This document shows positions 3,017-63,742 of a DNA stretch of 64,000 nt, one piece after another. Numbering within the stretch: position 1 is the stretch's first letter; every line of letters starts with the position of its first letter. Below the pieces are notes generated by a model. The model saw only the letters and a list, made by a program, of their open reading frames with translations. It searched no databases and was not told where the DNA came from. The stretch comes from Candidatus Magasanikbacteria bacterium RIFOXYC2_FULL_42_28 (GTDB taxonomy: Bacteria > Patescibacteriota > Patescibacteriia > Magasanikbacterales > GWA2-37-8). The stretch covers positions 11,324-75,323 of the forward strand of contig MFQZ01000009.1 in assembly GCA_001784435.1 (NCBI GenBank), written 5' to 3'. The position numbers and the translations under genes were made by a program.

Positions 3017-4114
3017 CTACTCCGTCTCCCGCCAATCACCAACCACTTTTTTAATATCATCACTATCCACCACGAGCACCCCCATCGCCTCGGCCTGCTT
3101 TTCCAAATCCTCGCGCCGTTTGGTTAACGCCTCGGATTTTTTAGCATAAATTTTGCGATCTAATTCTTGAATTTCACTCCATAATTTAGCGGCTTCGGGA
3201 TATTTTTCACTGGCGGTTTTAAATAAGATGGCCGGCACATCGGGGTGGACATGCGACACTTTCACCATCGCACCCGATTCATCAACCACATCCAACGCCT
3301 TGTCCGGCAAACGACGCGACACAATATATTTTTGCGATAGTTTCACGGCCGCGTCAATCGCGGCATCGGTAAATTCCACTTTGTGAAATTCGCGATAGCG
3401 GTCTTTGACATTTTTTAAAATGCCGATGGTCTCGGCCTCGGTGGGCTCCCTCACTTCTACCGGCTGAAACCGACGTTCCAAACTGGCATCGGTTTTAATA
3501 TATTTTTCATATTCTTCCGGAGTGGTGGCGCCAATCATTTGTAAATCCCCGCGCGCCAAAGCCGGTTTTAAAATATCAGAAAAATTTACCGCGCCTTCGG
3601 TGCCATGCGACTGAATGATAGTATGAATTTCATCAATAAATAAAATTATCCGCCGATCAGCCCGACAAACTTCGTCAATAATTTTTTTCGCGCGCTCTTC
3701 AAATTCCCCGCGATATTTGGTACCAGAAAGCAGACCGGCGACATCCAATGATAACAACCGGTCGCCCTGTAAATGTTCCGGTACTTGTTTTTTAACAATT
3801 AAAGACGCGAGCCCTTCGACGATGGCAGTTTTGCCCACGCCCGGCGCGCCAATTAAAATGGCGTTGTTTTTTTCCCGACGCGACATCACCTGCGCCAAGC
3901 GCGTAATTTCATCTTCGCGCCCCACGACCGGATCCAAACGATTGGCCGCGGCCAAAGCAGTGAAATCCACGGTAAAAGTGGCCAGTATATCCGCGCCACC
4001 TTTTTTAAAACTGAATCCACCGCCTTCTTTGCCTTTTTTAGTGGCAAAATAAATTAAGCCGATGACAACCGCTATTAACGGGCCGACAAAATATGAATTT
4101 AACATAAATACCAA
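3017..4114 (-). CDS. Membrane-anchored AAA+ ATPase with a single Clp/Hsp100-type D1 domain
   Basis: An N-terminal TM helix is followed by VVGREDEITRLAQVMSRREKNNAILIGAPGVGKTAIVEGLA (the ClpA/B/C D1 Walker A region), Walker B IILFIDEIH, and a coiled-coil tail. It has no D2 domain. Confidence 0.7.
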   Translation of the reverse strand: MVFMLNSYFVGPLIAVVIGLIYFATKKGKEGGGFSFKKGGADILATFTVDFTALAAANRLDPVVGREDEITRLAQVMSRREKNNAILIGAPGVGKTAIVEGLASLIVKKQVPEHLQGDRLLSLDVAGLLSGTKYRGEFEERAKKIIDEVCRADRRIILFIDEIHTIIQSHGTEGAVNFSDILKPALARGDLQMIGATTPEEYEKYIKTDASLERRFQPVEVREPTEAETIGILKNVKDRYREFHKVEFTDAAIDAAVKLSQKYIVSRRLPDKALDVVDESGAMVKVSHVHPDVPAILFKTASEKYPEAAKLWSEIQELDRKIYAKKSEALTKRREDLEKQAEAMGVLVVDSDDIKKVVGDWRETE

Positions 4115-5189: not shown

Positions 5190-6440
5190 ATGCCATTTTT
5201 TAATTTACAACACACCGACAACCGCGCCCGCGCCGGCGTTCTCCATACTGCTCATGGCGATATTGCAACGCCTTGCTTTATGCCCGTCGGCACCCAAGCC
5301 ACTGTTAAAACTTTGGATTCTTTGGATTTGGAAAATTTAAACGCGCCAATAATTTTAGGAAATACTTACCACTTGCATTTGCGTCCGGGCGAAGATTTGA
5401 TTGACACGGCCGGTGGATTACATAAATTTATGAATTGGAAACGACCGATTTTGACTGACTCGGGTGGATTTCAAGTTTTTTCACTTGGTCTACAAAAGGA
5501 CACCAAATTGTCATTTCGAACCGAGCGTAGCGAGCGTGAGAAATCTCCATCCGGTAAACAATACAATAATGGAGATCCCTCGCTTGACGCTCGGGATGAC
5601 AGCAAGAACGGCAACGAAAAACTCGTAAAAATCGACGACGACGGCGTTACCTTCCGCTCGCACATTGACGGCTCTACCCATCGCTTTACCCCCGAATCCG
5701 CCATTGAAACTCAACACAAACTCGGCGCCGATATAATCATGGCTTTTGACGAATGCACACCTGATCGGGCTTCGCCTGGCTACGCCCGACAAGCCATGGA
5801 ACGAACACATCTTTGGGCCGAGCGCTGCATTACTGAACACAAAAAAGAAACTAACCGCCACGGCTACCCCCAATTTTTATTTGGCATAATCCAAGGCGCC
5901 AACCATCAGGACTTACGCGAAGAATCTGCGAAATTTATTTGCGCGCAAGATTTTGACGGCATCGCGGTCGGCGGTGAATCTATCGGCTACAATATGGAAG
6001 CCACTGACGAAATTTTAAAATGGGTGCACCCGTATTTACCAACTAATAAACCACATTACGCAATGGGGATGGGGCTTGATCCAGCTGATTTACTCGTCGC
6101 GGTTGAAAATGGCATTGATATGTTTGATTGCGTCGCGCCGACACGATTGGCTCGGCATGGAATGATATTTACAAAAACAAAAGATAAAAGTGGTAAACAT
6201 AGAATGAATATAAAAAACAGTAGTTTTGCTACTGATTTTAGTCCGATTGAGCTGGATTGCACTTGTCACACCTGCCAAAATTACACGCGCGCGTATATCC
6301 ATCATTTATTCGCGGCCGAGGAGATGACCGCCATGCGCCTGACATCCATTCACAATTTACATTTTATGGTAGATTTGATGAAACAAACACGCGAGGCAAT
6401 TTTAAATAATAATTTTGCGGAATTTAAGAAAAATTTCTAA
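5190..6440 (+). CDS. tgt: Queuine tRNA-ribosyltransferase with a ~30-aa repeat-derived insertion
   Basis: MPFFNLQHTDNRARAGVLHTAHGDIATPCFMPVGTQATVK, ILTDSGGFQVFSL, and a C-terminal zinc site CTCHTCQNYTRAYIHHLF. The start is chosen by N-terminal similarity to Tgt (M-x-F-x-L...GRAR). Confidence 0.85.
   Translation: MPFFNLQHTDNRARAGVLHTAHGDIATPCFMPVGTQATVKTLDSLDLENLNAPIILGNTYHLHLRPGEDLIDTAGGLHKFMNWKRPILTDSGGFQVFSLGLQKDTKLSFRTERSEREKSPSGKQYNNGDPSLDARDDSKNGNEKLVKIDDDGVTFRSHIDGSTHRFTPESAIETQHKLGADIIMAFDECTPDRASPGYARQAMERTHLWAERCITEHKKETNRHGYPQFLFGIIQGANHQDLREESAKFICAQDFDGIAVGGESIGYNMEATDEILKWVHPYLPTNKPHYAMGMGLDPADLLVAVENGIDMFDCVAPTRLARHGMIFTKTKDKSGKHRMNIKNSSFATDFSPIELDCTCHTCQNYTRAYIHHLFAAEEMTAMRLTSIHNLHFMVDLMKQTREAILNNNFAEFKKNF
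5508..5596 (+). mobile_element. RPE-like palindromic repeat (family 1), complete copy inserted in-frame in tgt
   Basis: The copy reads TTGTCATTTCGAACCGAGCGTAGCGAGCG...GAGAAATCTCCATCC...AATGGAGATCCCTCGCTTGACGCTCGGGATGACA. Both hairpin ends are present, and it translates as KLSFRTERSEREKSPSGKQYNNGDPSLDARDDS. Confidence 0.6.
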
Positions 6441-6466
6441 GTTTGATTACACAAGCGTAATCAAAC
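6441..6466. repeat. Perfect palindrome GTTTGATTAC-ACAAGC-GTAATCAAAC (family 3), immediately after the tgt stop
   Basis: 10-6-10 inverted repeat. An identical copy lies at 7180-7205 and variants at 7294-7320, 46963-46988 and 47037-47060. Confidence 0.6.
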
Positions 6467-6580
6467 TGGTGGTTTCGCTCGCCACACAACTTTATCCCAG
6501 AAAGACACTCTTGGCCGTTCGGCCTAGGTTACGCTTTCTGAAATAAAGTTGCGCGTCGAGCTCTATGGTGCATAAAACAA

Positions 6581-7048
6581 ATGAATATGAATATAAACTT
6601 AATCTGTCTAGGCAAACCCAAAGAATCCTACTGGCGCGAGGCCGAGGCCGAATACTTAAAACGGCTTTCTTCAACGTGCAAAATCACCATTCGCGAGCTA
6701 AAAGAGAGGAGTTTTAGCGAAAAAGATGACCCGACCACGATTAAACTACAAGAAGCCGAACTAATTAAAAACGAACTAAAAAATACCAAAACCGGCCCAA
6801 TTTTGGTGCTTTCAGAAAATGGCCAACAATTTTCTTCAACAAAATTTGCCGAAATATTCAAAAATTCCGCTAATTTTACACTAATTATCGGTGGACCGCT
6901 GGGATTAGATGAATCAATTATTAAACTGGCGGACAAAGTAATTTCACTGTCTCCCCTAACTTTTACCCACCAAATGGCGCGAGTGGTGCTGTGGGAGCAG
7001 GTTTATCGGGCGCAGATGATAAATAGCGGGCGAAGATATCATTATTGA
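6581..7048 (+). CDS. rlmH: 23S rRNA (pseudouridine1915-N3)-methyltransferase, SPOUT family
   Basis: 155 aa. IIGGPLGLDESII...SLSPLTFTHQMARVVLWEQVYRA matches the RlmH/YbeA C-terminus. Confidence 0.8.
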   Translation: MNMNINLICLGKPKESYWREAEAEYLKRLSSTCKITIRELKERSFSEKDDPTTIKLQEAELIKNELKNTKTGPILVLSENGQQFSSTKFAEIFKNSANFTLIIGGPLGLDESIIKLADKVISLSPLTFTHQMARVVLWEQVYRAQMINSGRRYHY

Positions 7049-7055
7049 CGAGCGA

Positions 7056-7176
7056 AATGTCAAATTTCCAATTTCCAATGTCAAACCAAATCCAAATTTC
7101 AAATAACAAATACCGAATTTGACATTTTTACTTTGACATTGATTGGAAATTGGAAATTTGGATTTTGAAATTATCA
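7056..7176 (+). repeat. Long palindromic AATTTCCAATTTCCAATGTCAAA...TTTGACATTGGAAATTTGGATTTTGAAATT element (family 2)
   Basis: ~120 bp imperfect hairpin starting 8 nt after the rlmH stop. Four other copies occur at 12119, 19341, 43964 and 62441. Confidence 0.7.
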
Positions 7177-7179
7177 CAA

Positions 7180-7205
7180 GTTTGATTACACAAGCGTAAT
7201 CAAAC
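7180..7205. repeat. Family 3 palindrome GTTTGATTACACAAGCGTAATCAAAC
   Basis: Identical to 6441-6466. It brackets the rlmH and family 2 element segment. Confidence 0.6.
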
Positions 7206-7247
7206 TGTGGATAACTCTGGGTATAAGTCGCCTTTTCTGTGGATAAC
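7206..7247. promoter_or_regulatory. Two perfect DnaA boxes (TGTGGATAA, the reverse complement of TTATCCACA)
   Basis: Boxes at 7206-7214 and 7239-7247, 33 bp apart, followed by an AT-rich stretch at 7260-7380. Confidence 0.5.
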
Positions 7248-7395
7248 ACTTCGCTAATTTTAGCCAAAAAATATTTTCGGCAATAAAAAACTAAATTTGT
7301 ATACACAAGCGTATACAAATTTTTTGATATTTTAAACACTTTTAATCAATAATTTGGCTAATATATAACAAAAACTGCTCGCCTGCCCCACCCCC

Positions 7396-7424
7396 TTGAC
7401 AAAACTATAAATATGTGCTATAAT
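7396..7424 (+). promoter_or_regulatory. Consensus sigma70 promoter (TTGACA-17-TATAAT)
   Basis: TTGACA at 7396-7401, a 17-nt spacer, and TATAAT at 7419-7424. Confidence 0.6.
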
Positions 7425-7430
7425 ATCTTT

Positions 7431-7760
7431 GTAGTTCATTCTACAATTCAAGTTTCACTTCTGTGAAACACCCTCACGAAACTGCCATTTATGACAAGAA
7501 ATGGACTTATCACTGTAAAAACTTCAAAAAACAGCTAACAGTGATAATCCGCACTTCTTGCCTGGTATCCCCAATTTTACATTCGTCTGCGTTTTCCGCG
7601 ACAAATGTCCGGGGTAATACCTCTCAGGTGGTCGGAGGGTAACTCTGTCCGATGATTGACATTTTTCCCTAACGGGATTGATATCTCGTCGCGATGGTTT
7701 TACTAAAGGGCTAGAGCCTTAAAATTATTTTTATCGGGTCACTATGCCCTTTTTTTAATC
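7431..7760 (+). ncRNA. Long (~330 nt) structured 5' leader or ncRNA candidate upstream of the VIT-like transporter (riboswitch-like?)
   Basis: No ORF longer than 15 aa. It contains GC-rich paired segments (GTCCGGGGTAATACC...GGTCGGAGGGTAAC...GTCCGATG), a palindrome GTTTCACTTCTGTGAAAC, and ends in a hairpin plus T7 run (GCCCTTTTTTT at 7746-7757) just before the start codon. Confidence 0.25.
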
Positions 7761-7786
7761 CAATTTTTTTGGTATACTTATCTCAT

Positions 7787-8263
7787 ATGAAACCATCACT
7801 TCTCACCGGCTTTAGTTTTGGCCTAACCTCGGCCACCATCACCACTCTGGGGCTAATGGTTGGTTTGCAGTCCGGCACTAATTCCAAATTGGCGGTTTTG
7901 GGTGGCGTCCTGACTATCGCCATTGCCGATGCTTTTTCCGATGCGCTTGGGATTCATATTTCCGAAGAATCCAAGCTGGACAGTAACGCTAAGCACATCT
8001 GGGAAGCAACCGCATCCACTTTTTTATCAAAATTCTTATTCGCGTTAACTTTTTCCATACCATTTTTCTTTTTGTCATTAACCACGGCCGTTATCGTCAG
8101 CATTATTTGGGGCATAGTACTGCTGGGAGTGTTTAGTTATCATATCGCCAAAGCGAACGGCGCCCGGCCCGGCCCGGTCATTGTTGAACATTTGGGAATC
8201 GCCACGGCCGTTATTATTATCACCCATTTTGTCGGTAAGGCGATCAACACCTTTTTTGGATAA
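7787..8263 (+). CDS. VIT1/CCC1-like (DUF125) polytopic membrane protein, putative Fe2+/Mn2+ transporter
   Basis: GFSFGLTSATITTLGLMVGL and IAIADAFSDALGIHISEESKLD resemble the VIT-family motifs GANDGLVSTASLV and SMAxGEYVSVSSQ. It has 4-5 TM helices. The ATG at 7787 is preferred over the track's TTG at 7769. Confidence 0.4.
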   Translation: MKPSLLTGFSFGLTSATITTLGLMVGLQSGTNSKLAVLGGVLTIAIADAFSDALGIHISEESKLDSNAKHIWEATASTFLSKFLFALTFSIPFFFLSLTTAVIVSIIWGIVLLGVFSYHIAKANGARPGPVIVEHLGIATAVIIITHFVGKAINTFFG

Positions 8264-8285
8264 TAAAAAAAGACACGGGTGGCTA

Positions 8286-8314
8286 TTGACTACCAAAACG
8301 AAATATCGTATAAT
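8286..8314 (+). promoter_or_regulatory. sigma70 promoter TTGACT-17-TATAAT
   Basis: TTGACT at 8286-8291 and TATAAT at 8309-8314. Confidence 0.5.
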
Positions 8315-8350
8315 CTCTCAATAAGAGCGGACGACCTCTAACTTTAATTT

Positions 8351-8737
8351 ATGACAAAAACTACTTACACTAAAGAATTTTTAGACAAAATAAAAAAATC
8401 CCTCACTGCCGAAAAGGCGCGTTTAGAGGCGGATTTAGCTAAATTCACTACCAAAAATACTCACACTTCCGATGATTACGACAGCACCTTTCCGTCTTAT
8501 GGCGATAAGGAAGATGAAAACGCCAACGAAGTCGCGGACTACGCGGCCAATTTAACTTTGGAGGACTCTTTGGAAAAAACCTTACGCGATGTCAACCAAT
8601 CGCTTGATCGCTTAAAAAAAGGCACCTACGGCGTTTGCAAATACTGCAAAAAGGAAATTGGGATAAAACGTTTAGAAGCGCGCACTACTTCCAGCGCCTG
8701 CGTGGAATGCAAAAAAGCGATTACCCAAGAAGTTTAA
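8351..8737 (+). CDS. DksA/TraR-family C4 zinc-finger protein
   Basis: An N-terminal coiled-coil region is followed by a C-terminal zinc finger, GTYGVCKYCKKEIGIKRLEARTTSSACVECKK (CxxC-17-CxxC). Confidence 0.65.
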   Translation: MTKTTYTKEFLDKIKKSLTAEKARLEADLAKFTTKNTHTSDDYDSTFPSYGDKEDENANEVADYAANLTLEDSLEKTLRDVNQSLDRLKKGTYGVCKYCKKEIGIKRLEARTTSSACVECKKAITQEV

Positions 8738-8742
8738 ATTAT

Positions 8743-9180
8743 ATGTGGAGGCAAAAATCCCTGACCATAATTTTGGCGGGATTTTTTTTGTCACTGGACC
8801 AATTTCTAAAATACCGCGCACTGGGCGCTTGGCCGGAAAAAATTCTGTTAAACAAATTCTTCGGCTGGCAACCGTTTTTAAATGACGGCGTGGCGTTTGG
8901 TTTGCCCGTGCCAATGGTGATTATTACGGTGATGTCAATTTTGATAATCGCGATGTTTGTATTCTTGTTGACACGCGATGATAAAATAAAAAACAATTTT
9001 GGGATTTTTGCTTGCTTATCAATTGCCACCGCCGGCGCGCTCTCCAATTTAATTGACCGAATAATTTACGGACACACCGTTGATTATATTTTAATTTTTA
9101 CGGGGATTATTAATTTAGCGGATGTTTTGATTGTGATGGGGGTGGGTGGCTATATTTGGTATAAGAAAAACGATAAATAG
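8743..9180 (+). CDS. lspA: Lipoprotein signal peptidase (signal peptidase II)
   Basis: NDGVAFGLP, ATAGALSNLIDRIIYGHTVDYI and NLADVLIVMGV match the Lsp signature blocks. The start is at MWRQKSLTIILAGFF (8743). Confidence 0.8.
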   Translation: MWRQKSLTIILAGFFLSLDQFLKYRALGAWPEKILLNKFFGWQPFLNDGVAFGLPVPMVIITVMSILIIAMFVFLLTRDDKIKNNFGIFACLSIATAGALSNLIDRIIYGHTVDYILIFTGIINLADVLIVMGVGGYIWYKKNDK

Positions 9181-9204
9181 ATACCTTTTAATTTCCAAAT
9201 CCAC

Positions 9205-9304
9205 TTGTCATTCCGACAACGAAGGAGGAATCTCTATCCCGTTGGCTATTGCAGGCCAAATGGAGATCCCTCGTCGGATGCGAATCCTCACTCGGGATGA
9301 CAAA
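9205..9304 (+). mobile_element. RPE-like palindromic repeat (family 1), intergenic copy
   Basis: TTGTCATTCCGACAACGAAGGAGGAATCTCTATCCC...CAAATGGAGATCCCTCGTCGGATGCGAATCCTCACTCGGGATGACAA. Confidence 0.65.
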
Positions 9305-9348
9305 AAACGCTTGGTAACCAAAAAATAATTAGTTAATTTTCAACAACT

Positions 9349-10857
9349 ATGTTTTTCAAACTCCAAACCGCCGCCACCGTCGGCCTAGACGCTCGCCCCG
9401 TTGATGTAGAAGTAGACATCAGCAAAGGCCAAACGATGTTCAACATCGTCGGCCTCGCCGACACATCCATCAAAGAAGCGCGCGACCGCGTCCATTCGGC
9501 TTTGAAAAATTCCGGATTTAATTATCCGTTTAATTTTCGGATTTTAATAAATTTAGCGCCGGCGGATTTACCAAAAGAAGGCACGGGCTATGATTTGCCG
9601 ATAGCGGTTGGACTGATTGCCGTGTCGCAAAACATCGCTTTGAATACCGCGGACTCCTTGCTCGTGGGACAGTTGGCATTGGACGGTGCCGTGCGCCACA
9701 CCCCCGGGATTTTACCAATGGCGGTGTATGCCAAATCCGCCGGTTGTCGCGCCTTGTATGTGCCGGCAATGGACGCGCCCGAGGCGGCGCTCGTGCGGGG
9801 TCTGACAATTTATCCGGTCAAAAATTTAACGCAGATAATGGATCATTTAACCGGCAAAGATTTAATCGCGCCCTATGTGGCCGAAGCACCAGCGCCATTT
9901 ATCGCGGACGCGGGCGGGTTAGATATGAGCATGATTAAAGGCCAAGAATTCGCCAAGCGCGCGTTAGAAGTCGCGGCCGCCGGTGGCCATAATATTTTGT
10001 TGTCCGGCCCACCCGGTTCGGGAAAAACTTTGCTCGCCCGCACTTTGCCTTCTATCTTACCACCACTACTCACTGACGAAGCATTAGAAATTACCAAAAT
10101 TTATTCTATCGCTGGCCTGTTGCCATCTGGTTTAATTATGGAACGACCATTTCGCGGACCACACCACACCATTTCGCATGTCGCGCTTGTGGGCGGTGGA
10201 AGATGTCCGCGCCCGGGCGAAATTTCACTGTCACATCGCGGGGTTTTATTTTTAGATGAATTTCCGGAATTTCCGCGCACAGTTTTGGAGGCGCTCCGCC
10301 AACCTTTGGAAGATGGTCAAATTACCATTGCCCGCGCGCACGGCTCTTTAACTTTTCCCGCGCGTTTTATTTTAGTGGCCAGTCAAAATCCGTGCCCCTG
10401 TGGCTACAATTCGGACCCCGACAAGGCCTGCACTTGCTCATCAGCGCAAATTTCCAATTACACGCGCAAAATCAGTGGACCGATTTTGGATAGAATTGAT
10501 TTACAAGTAGAAGTCCCCCGCGTGCCGTTTGAAAAATTATCCGATTCGTCTTTGGCCGAATCATCGGCCGTGATTGCCGAGCGCGTGCGCGTGGCGCGTG
10601 ACCGCCAAACCGAACGACTGGCCAACACCAAAATTTTAACCAACAGCGAAATGGGTAATGCCGAAATTCGCGCTCATTGCCAATTAGACAAAGAATCCGT
10701 GGCGCTACTCCGTAGCGCGGTTGACCGCTTACATTTATCCGCGCGAGCGTATGGCCGAATTTTAAAATTGGCCAGGACGATTGCAGATTTGAATGCGCGT
10801 GAGAATATTGAGGTGGTGGATATTGCGGAGGCGCTACAGTATCGGGGGAAGGAGTAA
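9349..10857 (+). CDS. comM: Mg-chelatase-like AAA+ ATPase, YifB/ComM family
   Basis: 502 aa. It has an N-terminal Lon-like domain, Walker A GPPGSGKT, VLFLDEFPEF, and a C-terminal Mg-chelatase subunit ChlI domain. Confidence 0.85.
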   Translation: MFFKLQTAATVGLDARPVDVEVDISKGQTMFNIVGLADTSIKEARDRVHSALKNSGFNYPFNFRILINLAPADLPKEGTGYDLPIAVGLIAVSQNIALNTADSLLVGQLALDGAVRHTPGILPMAVYAKSAGCRALYVPAMDAPEAALVRGLTIYPVKNLTQIMDHLTGKDLIAPYVAEAPAPFIADAGGLDMSMIKGQEFAKRALEVAAAGGHNILLSGPPGSGKTLLARTLPSILPPLLTDEALEITKIYSIAGLLPSGLIMERPFRGPHHTISHVALVGGGRCPRPGEISLSHRGVLFLDEFPEFPRTVLEALRQPLEDGQITIARAHGSLTFPARFILVASQNPCPCGYNSDPDKACTCSSAQISNYTRKISGPILDRIDLQVEVPRVPFEKLSDSSLAESSAVIAERVRVARDRQTERLANTKILTNSEMGNAEIRAHCQLDKESVALLRSAVDRLHLSARAYGRILKLARTIADLNARENIEVVDIAEALQYRGKE

Positions 10858-10870
10858 ATAAAATTTCAAA

Positions 10871-10969
10871 TTGTCATTTCGACGACGAAGGAGAAATCTC
10901 TATCCCAATCGATTACCAATGGAGATCCCTCGTCCCGACTAAGTCGGGAGTCCTCGCTCGGGATGACAA
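10871..10969 (+). mobile_element. RPE-like palindromic repeat (family 1), the fullest copy
   Basis: TTGTCATTTCGACGACGAAGGAGAAATCTCTATCCCAATCGATTACCAATGGAGATCCCTCGTCCCGACTAAGTCGGGAGTCCTCGCTCGGGATGACAA, 13 nt after the comM stop. Confidence 0.7.
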
Positions 10970-10971
10970 AA

Positions 10972-10996
10972 ACCGCCAAACGACTGGCGGTTTTTT
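10972..10996 (+). terminator. Rho-independent terminator hairpin (CCGCCAAACGACTGGCGG + T6)
   Basis: A GC stem followed by TTTTTT. Confidence 0.5.
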
Positions 10997-11039
10997 CAAT
11001 TGGGGATAACTTCTACTAAAATGTCTTGTGTGTGTGTAG

Positions 11040-11350
11040 ATTAACTGATACCATAAATCTTACCGGGCCCCGTGCAACGCACGGACTTTCCCCGGAGGAG
11101 GAACGAAGCTATGGCGACCAAACACGAGCACCGGCAGAAGACCTACGCGAAGAAGAAGGCCCAGATCAAGAAGATCGACGGCGACACCCGCACGACGAAG
11201 ACGACCGCCTAGCTCATCTCGCCGAGCAAAGTGGTCAATGCCCTCAAACACCCCCGCGGGGCCAACGCCCCCAACAAGCCGAACCATTCGGCTGGCTCGC
11301 TTTTCTGGGGGCTGTCGCTCTTTTTTTTCATCGCTCCCACCCAAGCGCTC
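11040..11350. other. GC-rich (~60%) islet with a Shine-Dalgarno-led 33-aa basic mini-ORF (11111..11212)
   Basis: GGAGGAGG lies 7 nt before ATG, and the ORF reads MATKHEHRQKTYAKKKAQIKKIDGDTRTTKTTA. The composition contrasts with the flanks. The 121- and 94-aa track ORFs here look like GC-driven artefacts. Confidence 0.2.
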
Positions 11351-11475
11351 AGGCCCCCTACATTTTTCAAAATACTATAATAGTGTTGTGAAAAGTATCA
11401 TTGGCCTGAGAAAAAATGTCTGCCTCCGAAAATTAAAAATATCTGCCAAATAAGGCGGATATTTTTTGTTAACAG

Positions 11476-12036
11476 TTATTTAGCCATCGCCAACTGCGTC
11501 GGCACGGGCACAATTTCCGGATAATAAACCTCTACAACCAAACGCTTCACCCCAAACTTCATGGCTTCAGCGCGGGTGGTATCTAACCAAATGTCAAAAC
11601 GTTCACAACCATATTTTTTATTCATCCGGTCAGAAACACGGAGTACCAAATTCTTGTCATATTCAGGGATCTTCACAGCGGTATTATGTTTCAAACAGTT
11701 ATTGGCAATCATGCCATCATATACCTGCTCGCCCCAAGCGGCCGTAAACGGATCATCGTCGGTTTGGCCCTTCGTGCTGGTATAAGCCGTAATTACCCCA
11801 TTTATTGTATAACTTGGCTTTTTATCAATATACGGGTAAAACATGCGGTCGGCCTGGGTTTGGCTTAAAACATGGTTTTTGTCGGTATTTTGGCTAATAT
11901 CAGCCAAAACAGTGGTCGGAATGACAATTTGCCACAAAATAGCGCCCAACATAGCCAAATTATAGGCAATATTGGTATACTTGTGGTTGTTTTTTGGCTT
12001 AAATAACATATTTTTAGAAATTAAAAAGGATACCAT
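11476..12036 (-). CDS. 3D-domain (RlpA/MltA-like double-psi beta-barrel) protein, membrane-anchored
   Basis: TSTKGQTDDDPFTAAWGE...LRVSDRMNKKYGCERFDIWLD shows the three conserved Asp of the 3D domain. The start is MVSFLISKN (12036), because the track's N-terminus runs into the family 2 repeat. Confidence 0.55.
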   Translation of the reverse strand: MVSFLISKNMLFKPKNNHKYTNIAYNLAMLGAILWQIVIPTTVLADISQNTDKNHVLSQTQADRMFYPYIDKKPSYTINGVITAYTSTKGQTDDDPFTAAWGEQVYDGMIANNCLKHNTAVKIPEYDKNLVLRVSDRMNKKYGCERFDIWLDTTRAEAMKFGVKRLVVEVYYPEIVPVPTQLAMAK

Positions 12037-12118
12037 ATACCGGTACCCCTGATTTGCTAACTGAATAGTATAGCACAAATTGGCATTTTTGTCAAGATGA
12101 GGTATAATATCCCTGAAA

Positions 12119-12228
12119 TGACAAATGTCAAATTTCCAATTTCCAATCAAATCCAAATTTCCAATATCAAATTAGACATTTTGATTTTGACATTGATTTG
12201 ACATTGGAAATTTGGATTTTGAAATTAT
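12119..12228 (+). repeat. Family 2 long palindromic element
   Basis: TGACAAATGTCAAATTTCCAATTTCCAATCAAATCCAAATTTCC...TTTGACATTGGAAATTTGGATTTTGAAATTATCAC. It lies in the divergent intergenic region and ends 6 nt before the pbp start. Confidence 0.7.
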
Positions 12229-12234
12229 CACCCC

Positions 12235-15126
12235 ATGCCCATCCCACAGTTACGTCCCCGCAAAACTAGAACTTACGGTATTCTGGGTGATTCTCCTCGC
12301 CGTAATTTTTCGTTTTTAAAAAAATTCCGTTTCCCGCGCTTTTGGCAACGACGCGAAGGTAGTCGCGGTTGGTTAAAAAAATTAATTAAGCCGGCCATCG
12401 CTCTTTTGGCACTTGGTATTATTAGTATTACGGCTATGGTCGCTTGGGTGAGCAGAGATTTACCAGATCCAAATAATTTATCCGGCCGACAAATCGCGCA
12501 AAGCACCAAAATTTACGACCGCACGGGCGAACATTTGCTTTACGAAATTTATCAAAACCAAAAACGCACTACCGTGGAATTAAATCAAATTTCTCCCTGG
12601 GTGGCGAAGGCAACCGTGGCGGTGGAGGACCGATTATTTTACGAACATAGTGGCGTGCGCATAGTCAGCATCATTCGCGCTGGCATAAACAATTTGCTCG
12701 GACGCAGCGCCGGTTCGGGCGGAGCGTCAACTTTGACACAACAATTTATTAAAAACGCCGTGGTCGGCGATGAACATAGTATTTTCCGAAAAATTAAAGA
12801 GGCGATTTTGGCATTGCGACTGGAACGCAAATACAGCAAAGACGAAATCATGAAAATGTATTTGAACGAGGTACCCTATGGTTCCACTAATTACGGTGTG
12901 GAATCAGCGAGTCAAAGTTATTTTAAAAAACCCGCTTCCGAATTAACCTTACCCGAAGCCGCGACGCTCGCCGCGATTGTAAAAGCGCCCACTCGTTATT
13001 TAAACAATCCGGAATCATTACGCGACCGACGTGATTTGGTTTTGCGTTTAATGTTTGATCAGGGAATGATTACGGAGAACGAAAAAACCGAGGCGCAAGA
13101 TTCCGCTCTACGCCTATATCGCAATATCGGCATTATGGAAGCGCCCCATTTTGTCTTATATGTTAAGCAATTGTTAGCCGAACAATTTGGTGAAAGTTTG
13201 GTTGATACCGGCGGACTAAAAATTATCACCACGCTCGATTATGACAAGCAAATCTCCGCGCAAAATATTATAAAAGAACAGGGCGACAAATTCGCCAAGG
13301 ACTCCAACGCCAACAACGCGGCGCTCGTGTCAATTGATCCTAAAACCGGTGAAATTTTGGCAATGGTGGGATCACGCGATTTTGCCAATGAAGAAATTGA
13401 CGGCCAATTTAACGTGGCGATTTTAGGGCGACGTCAACCTGGGTCGTCATTTAAACCGTTTGTGTATTTGGCGGCATTTGAAAAAGGATACACGCCCGAA
13501 ACCGTGCTCTATGACACCATCACCAATTTTGAACAGCGCGCCAATGGCGACGATTATATTCCTAAAAATTACGATGGCAAAGAACACGGACTGTTAACGA
13601 TGCGCACGGCTTTGCAAGGATCGCTTAATATTCCGGCGGTCAAAACCTTGTATTTGGTGGGGCAGGAAAAAGTGATTGATATTGCCAAACGTTTTGGCTA
13701 TACCACTTTGACTGCCGACAAAGTAAAAAATGCCGGCTTGAGTTTGGTATTGGGTGGGGCGGAATTAAATTTGTTGGAACACACCGCGGCCTTTGCCACG
13801 CTCGCCAATAACGGCGTCTATCATAAACCGACCAGCATTTTGAAAGTTACTAACCCCCAAGAAGAAACTTTATTTGAGAAAAAAGAAAACGTGGGCGTCG
13901 AGGCGACAACGCCGGAATTGGCCGCGCTCGTCAGTAATGTTTTAAGTGACAATAACGCGCGCGCATATATTTTTGGCTTAAACAATAATTTAGTGTTACC
14001 GGACCGACCGGTCGCGACCAAAACCGGCACGACCAATGACAACAAAGACGCTTGGACAATGGGGTATACGCCCGCGCTTGCTACGGGTGTGTGGGTGGGC
14101 AACACTATCCCCACGCCAATGAAAGCCGGGGGCAACACTTTGGCCGGAACAATCTGGAATAAATTCATGCGCACAAGCACAACAAATATGCCGGTAGAAA
14201 ATTTCCCCGAAGCGCCAACCAGCACCGCGACCAAACCGATTTTGCGGGGCGCGTCCGGTGGTATTATTTTGAAAATAAATTCCGTGAATGGTAAAATCGC
14301 GGTATCTACCACGCCCGAACATTTAATCGTGGAGAAAAAATATTTGCTACCGCACGATATTTTACATTATGTGATAAAAGACGACCCTGCCGGACCGATA
14401 CCAATGAGCCCGGCCGATGATCCGCAATACAGCCGGTGGGAAGATGGCTTGCGCGCTTGGATTGAAAAATCCGTGGCCGCGGGCGAGCAATTAACTTTGG
14501 AAGAACCGCCGAGCGAATTAGACAATAATCAATCACCGGAATTAGCGCCCATTGTCAAAATTATCACCCCTATCAATGGCCAAATTATTACCAACCGCGA
14601 ATTGTACTTGGAGGCAACCGCTTCGGCTCCGCGCGGGATCAGTCGTGTTACTTTTCTGATTGATGGCGCGCCGGCCGGAACGGTTAATGCTCCACCGTTT
14701 GTGGTAAATTATCAAGCCAAAATTTTAGAAAATGGCCAACATGTTTTGCGCGCTTATGCCGAAGATGATATGGGGAACAGCGCGGTAGCCGAACAACTAT
14801 TTGTATTGGACGCGCCCCAGGGGCCACCGGAATTTGTTTGGGCTGAAAATGATAATTTAAAATTAGAAGCGACTGATTTCCCGCGCGCGCTAAAAATAAA
14901 AGTATACCGCTGGAACGAAGTTAAGGACTTGCGTATATTTTTATACAGCGCCGGCCCCACCAAATATATTTACAATTTCAAACCAAACGAAGACAAAGCC
15001 GAAAACGGCCAATTAAACTTTGAATGGAACACCTATCCGGGCGCGGGCAACTACCAAATTAAGGGGGTGCTGACCGGTAGTGATGGGCAGACAACGGAGC
15101 AAACGCTCGCGGTGACGGTGGAATAA
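12235..15126 (+). CDS. Class A penicillin-binding protein (glycosyltransferase + transpeptidase) with a C-terminal Ig-like extension
   Basis: GT motifs EDRLFYEHSGV and GASTLTQQFIKN. TP motifs SSFKPFVY (SxxK), SLN and KTGTT. The C-terminal ~250 aa form a beta-rich extension. Confidence 0.85.
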   Translation: MPIPQLRPRKTRTYGILGDSPRRNFSFLKKFRFPRFWQRREGSRGWLKKLIKPAIALLALGIISITAMVAWVSRDLPDPNNLSGRQIAQSTKIYDRTGEHLLYEIYQNQKRTTVELNQISPWVAKATVAVEDRLFYEHSGVRIVSIIRAGINNLLGRSAGSGGASTLTQQFIKNAVVGDEHSIFRKIKEAILALRLERKYSKDEIMKMYLNEVPYGSTNYGVESASQSYFKKPASELTLPEAATLAAIVKAPTRYLNNPESLRDRRDLVLRLMFDQGMITENEKTEAQDSALRLYRNIGIMEAPHFVLYVKQLLAEQFGESLVDTGGLKIITTLDYDKQISAQNIIKEQGDKFAKDSNANNAALVSIDPKTGEILAMVGSRDFANEEIDGQFNVAILGRRQPGSSFKPFVYLAAFEKGYTPETVLYDTITNFEQRANGDDYIPKNYDGKEHGLLTMRTALQGSLNIPAVKTLYLVGQEKVIDIAKRFGYTTLTADKVKNAGLSLVLGGAELNLLEHTAAFATLANNGVYHKPTSILKVTNPQEETLFEKKENVGVEATTPELAALVSNVLSDNNARAYIFGLNNNLVLPDRPVATKTGTTNDNKDAWTMGYTPALATGVWVGNTIPTPMKAGGNTLAGTIWNKFMRTSTTNMPVENFPEAPTSTATKPILRGASGGIILKINSVNGKIAVSTTPEHLIVEKKYLLPHDILHYVIKDDPAGPIPMSPADDPQYSRWEDGLRAWIEKSVAAGEQLTLEEPPSELDNNQSPELAPIVKIITPINGQIITNRELYLEATASAPRGISRVTFLIDGAPAGTVNAPPFVVNYQAKILENGQHVLRAYAEDDMGNSAVAEQLFVLDAPQGPPEFVWAENDNLKLEATDFPRALKIKVYRWNEVKDLRIFLYSAGPTKYIYNFKPNEDKAENGQLNFEWNTYPGAGNYQIKGVLTGSDGQTTEQTLAVTVE

Positions 15127-15227
15127 TTTTAAAATAAAAATTTTGCAATATTTCTATAACCAAAATGGACTTCTAAAAAAAATTAAGGTATAATATCACC
15201 AACAATTTATTAATTAATTTATCATCT

Positions 15228-15647
15228 ATGATAAATCTGCAAACGGTGGAAAACAAACTCCACCACCCACACGTCGGCCTGCTCCTCACTCGCGTTGCGC
15301 TCGCACTCGTATTTATTCACGCCGGCTGGTTAAAAGTGACCGACATGGATATGGTGCTAACCGGATTCGCCTCCATGGGCTTTCCGGCATTTTTGGCTTA
15401 CTTTGTGTCCTATGCCGAGTTAATCGGCGGTGTTGCCCTGCTACTGGGCTTGGGGGTGCGCTACGTTGGTATCGTGCTCGCAGTTATTATGCTTGTGGCC
15501 ACGAAAGTTCTGTTTGGTAATGGCTTTGGTTTGATGGGGGGCGGTTACGAATACACCCTCATATTAATGTTATTATTGATAGCGGTGGTTACGACCGGTC
15601 CGGGAAAATATTCAGTAGAACAAATGATGAAAAAATCGGCGGTTTAA
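15228..15647 (+). CDS. DoxX-family membrane protein
   Basis: 139 aa with 4 TM helices and LLLTRVALALVFIHAGWLK, as in DoxX. Confidence 0.65.
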   Translation: MINLQTVENKLHHPHVGLLLTRVALALVFIHAGWLKVTDMDMVLTGFASMGFPAFLAYFVSYAELIGGVALLLGLGVRYVGIVLAVIMLVATKVLFGNGFGLMGGGYEYTLILMLLLIAVVTTGPGKYSVEQMMKKSAV

Positions 15648-15662
15648 AATTTTTTTATAACT

Positions 15663-15696
15663 AAAAATATCCCGACTTAGTCGGGATATTTTTTTG
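15663..15696 (+). terminator. Terminator hairpin AAAATATCCCGACTTAGTCGGGATATTTTTTT
   Basis: A perfect hairpin plus T-run. The loop CCCGACTTAGTCGGG is related to the internal hairpin of family 1 repeats. Confidence 0.6.
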
Positions 15697-15712
15697 TAGT
15701 AAAAAACTCAAA

Positions 15713-16828: not shown

Positions 16829-16832
16829 ATAA

Positions 16833-17088
16833 TTTATTTATTTTTTGGTAGTGTATTGGTTTATTATATCTAATTAATAGTAATAATAAGGGTGGGGATA
16901 GTGGGGATAATTTCGTTTTTTATTTTATCTTAGCCAATTTAGGAGTGGATAATTTTTTTTATTTTTTAATAACTATGATGTGAGTTTGGGGATAACTATT
17001 TGGGTTTGTTTATTTTAAAAATTTGGTGGGGATAGAGGTGTGAGGGTGGGGATAAACTATACGAGTTATCAACAAAGTTATACACAAT
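16833..17088. promoter_or_regulatory. oriC-like region: cluster of six or more DnaA boxes (TGGGGATAA / GTGGATAA) with an AT-rich unwinding stretch
   Basis: GGTGGGGATAGTGGGGATAA, AGTGGATAA, TTGGGGATAA and GGTGGGGATAG...GGTGGGGATAA lie between dnaN and dnaA. An AT-rich stretch is at 16905-16980. Confidence 0.6.
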
Positions 17089-18462: not shown

Positions 18463-18570
18463 AGAAAAATCATTTATAGTGTTCGTATTTTACCATGAAA
18501 ACAAAGTTATCCACAACCACGGATAATTCCGTTTTTTGGCTTAATTGGGGATAAGTTGGGGATAAGTGTT
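18463..18570. promoter_or_regulatory. Second DnaA-box cluster upstream of dnaA (TTATCCACA at 18507-18515, TGGGGATAA x2 at 18546-18565)
   Basis: A perfect consensus box plus two variants. This is the typical dnaA autoregulatory/origin arrangement. Confidence 0.55.
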
Positions 18571-18617
18571 ATAATATCAAAATATAAATATCAAAAATCA
18601 AAATTCGACCGTTGGGC

Positions 18618-18646
18618 TTGACAAAACCACAAAAATGTGATATAAT
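18618..18646 (+). promoter_or_regulatory. sigma70 promoter (TTGACA-17-TATAAT) for rpmH-rnpA-yidD
   Basis: TTGACA at 18618-18623 and TATAAT at 18641-18646. Confidence 0.6.
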
Positions 18647-18677
18647 AAAGGGGTGATTATTAAAAATATTCAAAAAT

Positions 18678-18854: not shown

Positions 18855-18934
18855 AATTACTAAAATTAGCGAAAAATCCGGTTTTATGCCGGATTTTGTT
18901 TTTGGATGGTGTTTTGTGTGGTATAATATAATAT

Positions 18935-19340: not shown

Positions 19341-19452
19341 AATGTCAAATTTCCAATTTCCAATGTCAAATCAAATCCAAAGCTCAAATTACGAATTTGA
19401 CATTTTGATTTTGACATTGATTTGACATTGGAAATTTGGATTTTGAAATTAA
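19341..19452 (+). repeat. Family 2 long palindromic element
   Basis: AATGTCAAATTTCCAATTTCCAATGTCAAATCAAATCCAAAGCTCAAATTACGAATTTGACATTTTGATTTTGACATTGATTTGACATTGGAAATTTGGATTTTGAAATT. It starts 2 nt after the rnpA stop and ends 1 nt before the yidD ATG. Confidence 0.7.
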
Positions 19453-43000: not shown

Positions 43001-43963
43001 ATGATTATATTTATACACGGCCCCGACACCTTTCGGAGCCGGCAATATTTAAAAGAACAAGTGGAGAAATTTAAAATTGCCCGCGATCCACAGGGGTATA
43101 ATGTTGTGTTTGCGGACGCGGTGAGCGACGAGCCGGGGAAAATTTTAGGGGAGATTTCCAGCGCGCCGTTTTTGGCAGATAAGAGAATGATTGTTGTAGA
43201 AAATATTTTGGCATGCAAGGATAAGGATTTTATGGCTACGCTCATTGAAATGGTAAAAAATAATAAAGTGCCGGAAAGTAATGTTGTTTTGTTTTGGCAA
43301 GGCGAAGATAAATCAAAAATAAAAGAAGTGGATGAATTGGATAAATTATTGAAAAAAGAAAAATACGCGAAAGAATTTGATATGTTAACGGGCGCGCAAT
43401 TGTCCGTTTGGATAAAACAGGAATTTGTTAAATCAAAAGCGACTGTCAGTATGCCGGCGTTAAATTTTTTGGCGCAGAACGCGGGTGGTGATATGTGGCG
43501 ATTGTCGTCTTTAATCGCGCAATTGTCGGCCTATGCCACTGGGCGCGAGGTCGGCGTGGAAGGTGTAAAATTATTTTTGGATGAAAAGGTTGATGATAAT
43601 GTTTTTAATATGGTGGAAGCGGTCGTGTCGGGCAATCGTAAGCAGGCGTATAAATTATTAACCGAGCAAAGGCGGTTAGGCGAAGAGGACGGAAAATTAT
43701 TTGGTTTGATATTGTGGCAATTTCGGATTTTGGTGAATTTAAGGTCGTTGTTTGAAACTGAAGATAATTTAACGGCTGATCAAATGGCTAAACAACTTGG
43801 TTTGCATCCGTTTGTCGTGAAAAAGAATTTGGCACTGGTAAAACGAATGAGCTCGGCACGCTTAAAAGAAATTTACGAGATGCTTTTGGATATTGATAAA
43901 AAAATAAAAACCGGGCGGGGGGACTTGGGGTTGTTGGTTGATGTGCTGGTGGGACGCTTATGA
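43001..43963 (+). CDS. holA: DNA polymerase III delta subunit
   Basis: 320 aa with the HolA N-terminal fold IFIHGPDTF...FLADKRMIVVEN and a C-terminal helical domain. Confidence 0.75.
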   Translation: MIIFIHGPDTFRSRQYLKEQVEKFKIARDPQGYNVVFADAVSDEPGKILGEISSAPFLADKRMIVVENILACKDKDFMATLIEMVKNNKVPESNVVLFWQGEDKSKIKEVDELDKLLKKEKYAKEFDMLTGAQLSVWIKQEFVKSKATVSMPALNFLAQNAGGDMWRLSSLIAQLSAYATGREVGVEGVKLFLDEKVDDNVFNMVEAVVSGNRKQAYKLLTEQRRLGEEDGKLFGLILWQFRILVNLRSLFETEDNLTADQMAKQLGLHPFVVKKNLALVKRMSSARLKEIYEMLLDIDKKIKTGRGDLGLLVDVLVGRL

Positions 43964-44066
43964 ATGTCAAATTTCCAATTTCCAATGTCAAATCAAAGCC
44001 AAAATGACAAATTTGACATTTTTATTTTGACATTGATTGGAAATTGGATATTTGGATTTTGAAATT
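43964..44066 (+). repeat. Family 2 long palindromic element
   Basis: It starts immediately after the holA TGA as AATGTCAAATTTCCAATTTCCAATGTCAAATCAAAGCC...TTTGACATTGATTGGAAATTGGATATTTGGATTTTGAAATT. Confidence 0.7.
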
Positions 44067-44101
44067 AGTAAAGTCAGACACATACAGAAGCTTGAGTTTA
44101 A

Positions 44102-62407: not shown

Positions 62408-62440
62408 TTATTCTTATGGAGTTAGAATAAGTATTAATAA

Positions 62441-62549
62441 TTTCAAAATCTAAATTTCCAATGTCAAATCAATGTCAAAATCTTAATGTCAAATTTAGTA
62501 TTTGAGCTTTGGATTTGATTTGACATTGGAAATTGGAAATTTGACATTT
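62441..62549 (+). repeat. Family 2 long palindromic element (variant)
   Basis: TTTCAAAATCTAAATTTCCAATGTCAAATCAATGTCAAAATC...GATTTGATTTGACATTGGAAATTGGAAATTTGACATTTCG, located between convergent ychF and the methyltransferase. Confidence 0.6.
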
Positions 62550-62551: not shown

Positions 62552-63742
62552 CTATACTTTTTTGAACCTCCAAATCTCCCGCCCTACTCGCTGTCCCGGC
62601 CGGCCATACAACAAGTATGGCTTTTTTTGTTGAAGCGAGACCGTTTTAAATCCTAAATTATTTATTTCCGATTCGCAATTAATCGTGATCCACTGCCCGC
62701 GTGAAAAAAAACGGGGAATAATAAAAATTACTGTGCCATCTTTTTTTAACAATTTTGTAAACGCGCGAAAAGCATTTAAATACAAGGTTTTTAATTCGCC
62801 AACTTGTAATCGTAACTCGCTTTCGCTTTCACGTCCGGTTAATGGTTTTCCTAAATATGATTCGGTGATGATTGTGTCAATTGAATGGGGTTTTATTTTT
62901 TTCTCTAAATTATCAATATCAATATTGTAAATTGGAAATTGAGAATTGATTGGAAATTTGAAATTTGAAATTGGAAATTGCCGTGCCGTCCACTCCACAT
63001 TTTTTCGTGTATCCGCTATCGCTTTTTCAGATATATCACTCCCGATTAAATTTTTATAACCCAAAATCATCGCCTCGGTCAAAATTGTCCCCGAACCACA
63101 AAATGGATCGAGCAAGGTCGCGTCCAAATCTGCTTGCGCCAAATTTATCATCATCATCGCCAACTTCGGCGGCAACATGCCCGAAAAATCATCGCGTCCC
63201 GGTCGTCCAAAGTCGCGCGCGCCTAATTCTTCAAACGGTTGAATGGCAATTGTTTTGGCCAAAGCAAAACCGTCAGCAGTTTTGGTGATTAAAAACTCCC
63301 GTCCTTTAGTAGTGAGTTGGTTGTGAAATACGGTTGCCGAAGATAACTGGTTATGTTCATCGCTCGGCACATAACGCACTGACAGGCCATTCTTTTTCAA
63401 TTCTTTTTTTATGTCCAAGGCAAATGGCTTAACGCCAATTTGTCCGGACTTATCATATAAACTGATGCCAAAATGGATTTTGCCGGTAATGGTTTGCAGT
63501 TCTGCAATAATTTTTTCTTTTAATTCGTTTTCTGTTAATTCCGAGCCGACCTCTTCGGCGATCTTAATTGTTCCGCCTAAACGTTTAATTAAATCGGTTT
63601 CCACGGCCGTATTAATTTTTAAAATATTTTCCGCCAAAAATTTAACCGCTTCATTTGGTAATTTTAAAACCGTGGTGATTTCCGCCGTGGATATTTCCGG
63701 TTCTCGTCCTAAAACAAACCAAGTGAAATTATTTTTTTTCAT
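62552..63742 (-). CDS. THUMP-domain RNA methyltransferase (Trm14/RlmL/TrmN-like, class I SAM MTase)
   Basis: The N-terminal THUMP-like region is followed by SAM motif I LLDPFCGSGTIL and the catalytic region. The ATG is at 63742. Confidence 0.65.
   Translation of the reverse strand: MKKNNFTWFVLGREPEISTAEITTVLKLPNEAVKFLAENILKINTAVETDLIKRLGGTIKIAEEVGSELTENELKEKIIAELQTITGKIHFGISLYDKSGQIGVKPFALDIKKELKKNGLSVRYVPSDEHNQLSSATVFHNQLTTKGREFLITKTADGFALAKTIAIQPFEELGARDFGRPGRDDFSGMLPPKLAMMMINLAQADLDATLLDPFCGSGTILTEAMILGYKNLIGSDISEKAIADTRKNVEWTARQFPISNFKFPINSQFPIYNIDIDNLEKKIKPHSIDTIITESYLGKPLTGRESESELRLQVGELKTLYLNAFRAFTKLLKKDGTVIFIIPRFFSRGQWITINCESEINNLGFKTVSLQQKKPYLLYGRPGQRVGREIWRFKKV
62925..62990. repeat. 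Family 2 repeat fragment (GGAAATTGGAAATT units) embedded in-frame in the methyltransferase gene
   Basis: AAATTGGAAATTGAGAATTGATTGGAAATTTGAAATTTGAAATTGGAAATT encodes QFPISNFKFPINSQFPIYN on the minus strand. Confidence 0.45.

Follow-up and report, generated by a model that had tools for sequence, protein, structure and literature searches.

The closest described relatives of the elements reported here are the intervening sequences (IVSs) of bacterial 23S rRNA genes, among which that of Coxiella is a selfish element of 428 nt with a 28-bp inverted-repeat stem, excised by RNase III, that carries tandem heptamer repeats just upstream of its S23p open reading frame (ORF) and whose origin and mobility are open (PMC4990558). 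The rRNA genes of the Candidate Phyla Radiation (CPR) also carry 23S_rRNA_IVP ORFs, together with many short unexplained inserts at IVS sites (PMC11270868), and the family PF05635 resembles Avd, the accessory protein of diversity-generating retroelements (DGRs) (PMC10053308). The nature and movement of rRNA IVSs and of their four-helix-bundle (4HB) ORFs has been an open question since the early 1990s (PMC4990558). Here we analyzed a stretch of 64,000 nt (the window) from the genome of Candidatus Magasanikbacteria bacterium RIFOXYC2_FULL_42_28 (contig MFQZ01000009.1, positions 11,324 to 75,323), in which five palindromes are found among protein-coding genes, and our results indicate that these are probably internally deleted, ORF-less copies of a selfish cassette widespread in the CPR/Patescibacteria. 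IVSs, the PF05635 family and miniature hairpin repeats were already known, and the novelty lies in their combination in the protein-coding context of CPR genomes. A literature search, outside which many subscription-journal papers fell, returned no earlier description that unites an IVS-type 4HB cassette with miniatures dispersed in such a context, a quantified stop-codon preference and in-frame copies, and nothing specific on palindromic elements or miniature inverted-repeat transposable elements (MITEs) in CPR.

The five palindromes stand where the original prediction had placed them, and when the 64 kb are searched with a profile of these sequences, five full copies and no more are recovered (E 1e-31 to 1e-35), as follows:
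7056..7173, plus strand: copy 1, 7 nt past the rlmH stop codon (7046-7048)
12117..12227, plus strand: copy 2, in the 5' leader of PBP1A, 8 nt past a -10 box (12103-12108) and 7 nt before the ATG at 12235
19341..19451, plus strand: copy 3, the whole rnpA-yidD spacer, 1 nt past the TAA (the junction reads TAATG) and with a gap of 2 nt to the start codon of yidD at 19454
43963..44067, plus strand: copy 4, which shares its first A with the end of the holA stop codon TGA
62438..62548, minus strand: copy 5, with its AATGTC end 3 nt past the TAG of a minus-strand Trm11-like methyltransferase gene and its other end 31 nt past the ychF stop codon

Pfam searches agree with the gene names proposed earlier (rlmH, rnpA, yidD, holA and ychF), and the placement claimed after the stops of rlmH, rnpA, holA and ychF holds at the distances listed, with the addition that the copy at 62441 is inverted and that its near neighbor is the methyltransferase stop. 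The element at 19341 does adjoin the yidD start, at a gap of 2 nt instead of the single nucleotide given before, while the copy reported at 12119 does not follow a stop at all and fills the space between a promoter-like site and the PBP1A ATG. That site (TTGGCA-17-TATAAT, 12080..12108, plus strand) is conserved in relatives, and copy 2 therefore lies in a transcribed leader. The 23-mer from which each copy was said to be built is exact in four of the five and reaches the fifth through its inverted arm only, with 0 matches expected (100 shuffles), and a 24-mer, AATGTCAAATTTCCAATTTCCAAT, is common to all of them. Pairwise identity among the copies is 87-93%. They are short, multi-copy elements with imperfect inverted terminal repeats of approximately 35 nt and the ends AATGTCAAA ... 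TTTGAAATT; copy 2 has one additional 5' word (AATGACA), and an identical 33-nt 5' end occurs in another locus (L009; L numbers denote loci). When the folding suggested in the original prediction was carried out, each copy gave an AU-rich, slightly bulged hairpin of approximately 45 bp at -30 to -40 kcal/mol, with z-scores of -3.9 to -7.3 and none of 200 shuffles folding equally well. Two further copies in the 10 kb beyond the window end, one ahead of an FG-GAP gene and one filling the pilB-pilC spacer, raise the number to seven in approximately 84 kb of the source genome. The window is identical to the ENA contig ERZ27254748 k141_200363, and its methyltransferase has 100% identity to a protein of Candidatus Magasanikbacteria bacterium RIFOXYC2_FULL_42; an exact-match search with YchF gave no result.

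The identity of the palindromes is indicated by the finding that the same arms enclose an ORF of approximately 120 aa in at least five independent contexts (L088 = L078, L023 = L066, L098, L131 and L070). This ORF encodes a 4HB protein that matches TIGR02436 (5.5e-21) and PF05635, named "23S rRNA-intervening sequence protein" (2.8e-14), both above the curated cut-offs. The full cassette is approximately 470 nt long and has a left arm of 7-nt words (AATGTCA, AATTTCC, AATCAAA and similar), of which the right arm is the inverted complement. In L088 it spans 13113-13587, starting 1 nt past the TGA of the upstream gene and ending 8 nt before the next ATG, and in its fold the paired arms enclose the ORF (-135.9 kcal/mol, z -6). 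The first ATG, which lies inside the 21-mer AATGTCAAATTTCCAATTTCC, is in frame with the ORF in L088, L023, L098 and L131, three 7-nt words making seven codons (MSNFQFP), and the start codon and N-terminus of the 4HB protein belong to the left arm. Full cassettes trail housekeeping genes, in the arrangements lepA-4HB-divIC, response regulator-4HB and rpsQ-4HB, the last with a TAATG overlap in a ribosomal protein operon. At E<=1e-15 the 4HB family comprises 5,747 clusters, of which the 120 top-ranking ones are 65-75% identical, with those that are named coming mostly from CPR, and 26 of 28 sampled homologs begin MSNQxQNPNVKKKYDL. A second, directly repeated left-arm/ORF start, broken by a G+C hairpin (GCCTCGCCTGCCAGAGTTCAGGAGGAACGGCGAGCAGGC), is seen past the 4HB ORF in L146 (915-1010) and L147 (1580-1680), and therefore tandem cassettes and nested insertions exist.

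Aligned with the L088 cassette, the window copies correspond to its left arm joined directly to its right arm, retaining the first 12-14 codons of the ORF, up to K-(F/Y)-D, before the right arm begins. The remnant peptides read from the first ATG are:
7057: MSNFQFPMSNQIQISNNKYRI, then a stop codon
19342: beginning MSNFQFPMSNQIQSSNYEFD
43964: beginning MSNFQFPMSNQSQNDKFDI
62547, minus strand: beginning MSNFQFPMSNQIQSSNTKFDI

The remnants MSNQIQ..NKY, MSNQSQNDKFD and MSNQIQSSNTKFD match the conserved N-terminus of the 4HB proteins, and both the arms and the ORF stub are common to the window copies and the ORF-bearing form. A conserved micropeptide was considered and rejected, since the remnant ORFs end at differing points and in differing frames. 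The junction left by the central deletion is identical in all five copies, which argues for descent from a single ORF-less master instead of five independent decays, and therefore for multiplication of the copies as a miniature unit, either through mobilization in trans, in the manner of a MITE, or through conversion. As the ORF codons AAA-TTT-GAC (K-F-D) resemble the right-arm word TTTGACATT, microhomology was available for the deletion.

Copies of the window type are insertions. Syntenic relatives (L049-L054), whose RnpA is 66-71% identical and whose genes likewise run dnaN-dnaA-rpmH-rnpA-yidD, have a spacer of 7-8 nt from the stop of rnpA to the start of yidD, as opposed to 114 nt in the window, all of it element. 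Placement was assessed with 118 non-redundant copies from about 130 loci, 96 of them intergenic and 22 inside ORFs of at least 100 codons (17 on the sense strand), under a null model that took each element out of its locus and put it back at a uniformly drawn position in the intergenic DNA there. Among 95 intergenic insertion points, 26 lie within 10 nt of a stop codon, compared to 6.7 expected, and 36 within 20 nt, compared to 12.1, neither count being reached in any of 20,000 simulations; the copies hence adjoin stop codons far above chance, in agreement with the preferential insertion at gene ends that had been suggested from the window. Where an intergenic copy has a gene end on one side (n=64), an end of the element falls within 10 nt of the stop in 37 cases and within 20 nt in 47, and 12 copies share bases with the stop codon. 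For copies between tandem genes, the median distance from the stop is 4.5 nt, and that to the following start is 26 nt. A rule of orientation, with the AATGTC end toward the stop of a gene in all five window copies, was rejected, as it fails across families (41 sense versus 31 antisense) and at pilB-pilC; because the palindrome reads C-rich and then G-rich words either way, the apparent rule can be explained largely by symmetry.

The arms are widely but patchily distributed. In a one-genome-per-species collection the 21-mer occurs at 47 loci, most of them in CPR and including Parcubacteria, Saccharibacteria, Falkowbacteria, Peribacteria, Berkelbacteria, Buchananbacteria, Doudnabacteria, Magasanikbacteria, Moranbacteria and Microgenomates; metagenomes add more than 87 further loci, so that the arms are found in more than 130 loci overall, mainly in metagenome-assembled genomes (MAGs) of CPR/Patescibacteria. 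Distant lineages share 33-35 nt of identity, including a bin of G+C 0.60-0.65, and most matches of the 21-mer have a right arm of reverse-complement words. The 21-mer is absent from IMG/VR viral contigs and the full cassette has no blastn match in phage or plasmid collections, and these searches therefore point to no vector. A scan of the window at the Rfam gathering thresholds returned four tRNAs only.

The likeness to the 23S rRNA IVSs with an S23p ORF, known from Leptospira, Coxiella and Xanthomonas, extends to several features: an inverted-repeat stem around a PF05635 ORF, heptamer repeats before the ORF start, a length of approximately 430-470 nt, the existence of ORF-less versions of approximately 100 nt (in Salmonella and others), and the fact that both are considered selfish and horizontally spread with no known mobility enzyme. 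Unlike the IVSs, the copies examined here occur in a protein-coding context (past stops, in leaders and in frame) and none in an rRNA helix, reach a high copy number (7 in approximately 84 kb), and have arms conserved across many CPR lineages. The cassette ORF also belongs to the family that resembles Avd, but unlike the Avd of DGRs it has no reverse transcriptase, template or variable repeat beside the copies examined, and its hosts are housekeeping genes. Like a MITE, the element shows presence/absence polymorphism at an orthologous site, that between rnpA and yidD, although what its ORF-bearing counterpart with matching ends encodes is a 4HB protein and not a recognized transposase.

Other families of short palindromes offer partial parallels. 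The Rickettsia palindromic elements, said to have been described by Ogata and colleagues in 2000, are reportedly 100-150 nt long, found in reduced, host-dependent genomes both between genes and in frame in essential genes, and are said to add short peptide segments with no associated transposase. The element studied here is alike in behavior through its in-frame insert in TrmD and shorter in-frame stretches in TsaD, GatA, a MiaB-like protein and LeuRS, and differs in having an ORF-bearing parent and a marked stop-codon preference. Correia elements, also called NEMIS, in Neisseria and enterobacterial repetitive intergenic consensus (ERIC) elements in enterobacteria are miniature inverted repeats that are co-transcribed as long hairpins; those of Correia are cut by RNase III and show a clear TA duplication, while ERIC affects mRNA decay. 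Both are taxonomically confined, to a single genus or family, and are not known to derive from a parent with a 4HB ORF. Repetitive extragenic palindromic (REP) sequences and the REP-derived hairpins known as REPINs are likewise extragenic repeats of approximately 100 nt present in many copies, but the arms of a REPIN are each palindromic, with a conserved GTAG-type head, and are mobilized by REP-associated tyrosine transposases (RAYTs). This identity was rejected, given that the left arm here is almost G-free and not self-complementary, and no RAYT-like gene turned up, although no search was aimed at RAYT. An integron attC site was also discarded, because the ends carry none of the R''/R' core sites (RYYYAAC ... 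GTTRRRY) and the flanks are housekeeping genes in conserved synteny. The guide arrays of TIGR-Tas systems (PMC12045711) were ruled out since single palindromes stand here in place of tandem arrays, although no search was aimed at a Tas (Nop-domain) gene.

Other origins of the five palindromes must be weighed against descent from the 4HB cassette by deletion. One holds that the ORF-less form never transposed, and that full cassettes were inserted at each site and then either converted to a single ORF-less allele by ectopic recombination between arms or left to decay independently. Recombination between the arms would indeed have more than 35 nt of near-identity to act on, the microhomology between AAA-TTT-GAC and TTTGACATT is at hand, and differently shaped decayed cassettes exist (L070, L146/L147); nevertheless, independent decay is excluded by the single junction in all five window copies, and the 84 kb examined lack a full cassette, so that we regard this origin as unlikely, while noting that conversion and trans-mobilization look alike in the present data. 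Still less probable is a classical MITE of a DDE transposon (e.g., IS630/Tc1-mariner, with TA target duplication) whose transposase resides elsewhere and for which the 4HB ORF would be a captured passenger. Terminal inverted repeats of approximately 35 nt, multiple copies and empty sites in relatives are all as such an origin would have them, and so are the T that precedes about 20 of 52 copies on the 5' side, the A that follows most copies on the 3' side and the empty rnpA-yidD spacer of L054 (TAA-TAAT-TTTT-ATG), which fits a TA target. However, when a matching right arm was sought 0.2-4 kb downstream of each 21-mer, no transposase-sized ORF was found between matching arms (approximately 140 loci), the sole cases being the in-frame LeuRS insert (L004) and 4HB genes (L023, L031), and the sole relatives with an ORF, found in five contexts or more, have the 4HB gene there. 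Flanks of the form T...A or TAA...TAA are present in L003, L037 and window copy 3, and not in others; a TA duplication is inseparable from extension of the palindrome, and four window copies out of five have none on their 5' side.

Selection by the host, under which the palindromes would serve as intrinsic terminators, attenuators or stabilizing hairpins at 3' ends, kept for ending or protecting the upstream mRNA, is the least credible of these explanations and in our opinion very improbable. Four of the five copies do start within 7 nt of a stop codon, the folds are stable at the z-scores given above, and copy 5 is the sole hairpin between the convergent ychF and methyltransferase genes. Nevertheless, the orthologous rnpA-yidD site is empty in relatives, in-frame copies exist within ORFs, and a decayed ORF start is kept in the copies. 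The role of terminator, which the original prediction had put forward, is particularly hard to sustain: the stem is AU-rich and almost devoid of G-C pairs, no T run (the U tract of the RNA) comes after any copy, a consensus scan of 6000-20000 flagged none of the three copies in that range, and copies sit inside operons and at other places where termination would be harmful (rnpA-yidD, pilB-pilC, gatC-gatA in L031 and the PBP1A leader). Moreover, a separate G+C terminator-like hairpin with a T run (44108-44135, read by eye) already stands on the 3' side of copy 4, followed by the convergent rpsT.

Descent of the five palindromes from the ORF-bearing 4HB cassette is therefore the reading that we retain, although several observations count against it. 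Purifying selection alone, with neither targeting nor coupling, could yield the proximity to stop codons. No 4HB gene was found in the approximately 84 kb of source genome read, so that a trans-acting partner in that genome is hypothetical, and the RNase III gene (rnc) was not found there either, which is uninformative for a genome of approximately 1 Mb. The Avd-like 4HB protein is known neither as a transposase nor as a recombinase, and a transposase was not found beside any copy; flanks of T...A are common, but indistinguishable from palindrome extension, and no target-site duplication was established. Some 4HB cassettes have no right arm (L146-L148). A few bins with the 21-mer are labeled Stahlbacteria/WOR-3, Gammaproteobacteria or Bdellovibrionales, labels of MAG bins that are unconfirmed. 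Finally, an Rfam scan of 13 loci placed no copy inside an rRNA gene, the nearest case being a copy approximately 600 nt upstream of a 16S gene, and what ties the copies to the rRNA IVSs is therefore a common architecture and ORF family, not identity of arm sequence. We tentatively raise the possibility, which we consider doubtful as a whole, that the IVSs of 23S rRNA are no more than the rRNA-resident fringe of a much larger, CPR-wide family of hairpin-bounded 4HB (Avd-like) cassettes, which would home to the first nucleotides past stop codons, be expressed through the terminating ribosome, shed ORF-less miniatures into operons, leaders and the reading frames of essential genes, and move outside the known transposase classes, perhaps by the nucleic-acid-binding 4HB protein itself or by an RNA intermediate and a DGR-type reverse transcriptase.

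The arrangement of the full cassette suggests how its ORF might be expressed. No promoter or Shine-Dalgarno sequence of its own is evident at the junctions, which were read by eye with no promoter or ribosome-binding-site scan, and its first ATG lies 0-8 nt past the host stop, often as TAATG, buried in the stem. An ATG close past a stop codon is the classic layout for coupling by termination and reinitiation. We envisage that the 4HB ORF is translated in this manner, the ribosome that ends the host gene opening the stem, which would make a stop-adjacent placement advantageous for the element, and the full cassette may thus park at stop codons for coupled translation of its ORF. This amounts to a testable expression strategy, under which a selfish ORF would go untranslated unless the ribosome that completes the host gene melts the stem. 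An RNA stem of approximately 45 bp is a textbook RNase III substrate, and once transcribed it is probably cut by this enzyme, by analogy with the stems of rRNA IVSs. The ORF-less copies would then be at most processing or stability sites, not terminators, and it is plausible that the hairpin influences how stable the RNA is or how it is processed.

Copies are also tolerated in frame within genes, as they are in operons and leaders. In the TrmD gene of L034 the full element is in frame as an insert of approximately 30 aa where solved TrmD structures have 4 residues (residues 1-90 align to 84-174 of 8byh_A, and residues 125-158 to 179-212). Shorter in-frame stretches of the left arm, which has no stop codon in any frame, are found in TsaD (L019), in a MiaB-like protein of two Stahlbacteria MAGs (L017, L020), in GatA (L021) and in LeuRS (L004). 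The window itself has one such stretch:
62912..62982, minus strand: left arm only, in frame in the methyltransferase ORF, encoding FPISNFKFPINSQFPIYN (profile E 5e-5)

Compared with 18 homologs, FPISNFKFPINSQFPIYN adds a net of approximately 7-8 residues to the methyltransferase and three of the homologs carry similar strings, which argues for a short word-type insertion and not a full element. Unrelated inserts of 20-45 residues, e.g., SPVILNESASWRRSEESLSGRQLRQRSFATAQDDRN, are present at three further positions in the CPR homologs P0317, P0243 and P0263, which suggests that in-frame element insertions are common in CPR proteins.

For the annotation of CPR genomes, these observations mean that such elements can create spurious N-terminal extensions (yidD, PBP1A and 4HB genes), place extra peptide segments in essential proteins (TrmD, TsaD, GatA and LeuRS) and interrupt operons with long hairpins. 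A family of hundreds of copies in ordinary gene contexts, with a recognizable parent and a sharp insertion preference, also makes the IVS question tractable by comparative genomics.

The window contains other repeats. A second palindromic family of approximately 100 nt, richer in G+C (TTGTCATTTCGACGACGAAGGAG...CCTCGCTCGGGATGACAA), has copies at 10869-10969, 9203-9303 and 61909-62009 and in L049 at 3135-3215, with fragments at 5569-5601 and 37110-37142; one of the copies, 94% identical to the intergenic one, lies in frame inside ychF and encodes approximately 34 residues (GISPIVTPTTKEESLSQLIANGDPSSRLSRESSLGMTTQ). This family ends in TGTCA...TGACA, the same pentamers that end the arms of the five palindromes. 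In the PBP1A leader (window 12109-12234, L054 62-164 and L049 3110-3215), three related genomes have three different palindromic elements directly past the same -10 box, which could reflect either a hot spot for insertion or a requirement for a hairpin at this place. AT-rich stretches of similar words (AAATATCAAAAATCAAA...) with no inverted partner occur at 18574-18621, 30314-30359 and 35903-35975; these are probably the "family 1" of the original prediction and may be left-arm-only remnants of related cassettes, their match to the profile being weak (E 0.11). The yidD gene of L049 begins with such AT-rich words (MQKSKIKITIQNLKL).

The genes that border the copies, all assigned by Pfam, and the two replication genes of the window are the following:
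6581-7048, plus strand: rlmH
12235-15126, plus strand: PBP1A
18935-19339, plus strand: rnpA
19454-19711, plus strand: yidD
43001-43963, plus strand: holA
44144-44398, minus strand: rpsT
61256-62407, plus strand: ychF
62552-63742, minus strand: Trm11-like methyltransferase
15713-16828, minus strand: dnaN (replication gene)
17089-18462, minus strand: dnaA (replication gene)

Near-perfect palindromes of 24 nt (TTTGATTACACAAGCGTAATCAAA) are found at 6442-6465, 7181-7204, 7293-7322, 46964-46987 and 47033-47056 (8 matches over both strands, compared to 0 expected). Copy 1 lies between two of these palindromes, and one of the set adjoins two DnaA boxes; they look like operators or protein-binding sites. 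Consensus DnaA boxes (TTATCCACA) comprise two just downstream of copy 1 (7206-7246) and one upstream of dnaA (18507-18515). Since the minimum of the cumulative GC skew is at about 8-16 kb of the window, these boxes together with dnaA and dnaN indicate that the window spans the replication origin region. The stretch 10970-11102 is 100% identical over 133 nt to L049 470-602, though the flanking genes are approximately 70-87% identical; it holds a terminator-like hairpin and the leader of a 121-aa ORF (11026-11391), has no Rfam match, and may be a conserved leader or small RNA. Lastly, the 83 nt at 38908-38990, right past the stop of the gene at 36188-38905 and with no long ORF after them, are a 90% identical copy of the 5' end of holA (43000-43082; MIIYLSGPDTFRSRQYLKEQVEKLKIA) and appear to be a duplicated gene-start fragment.

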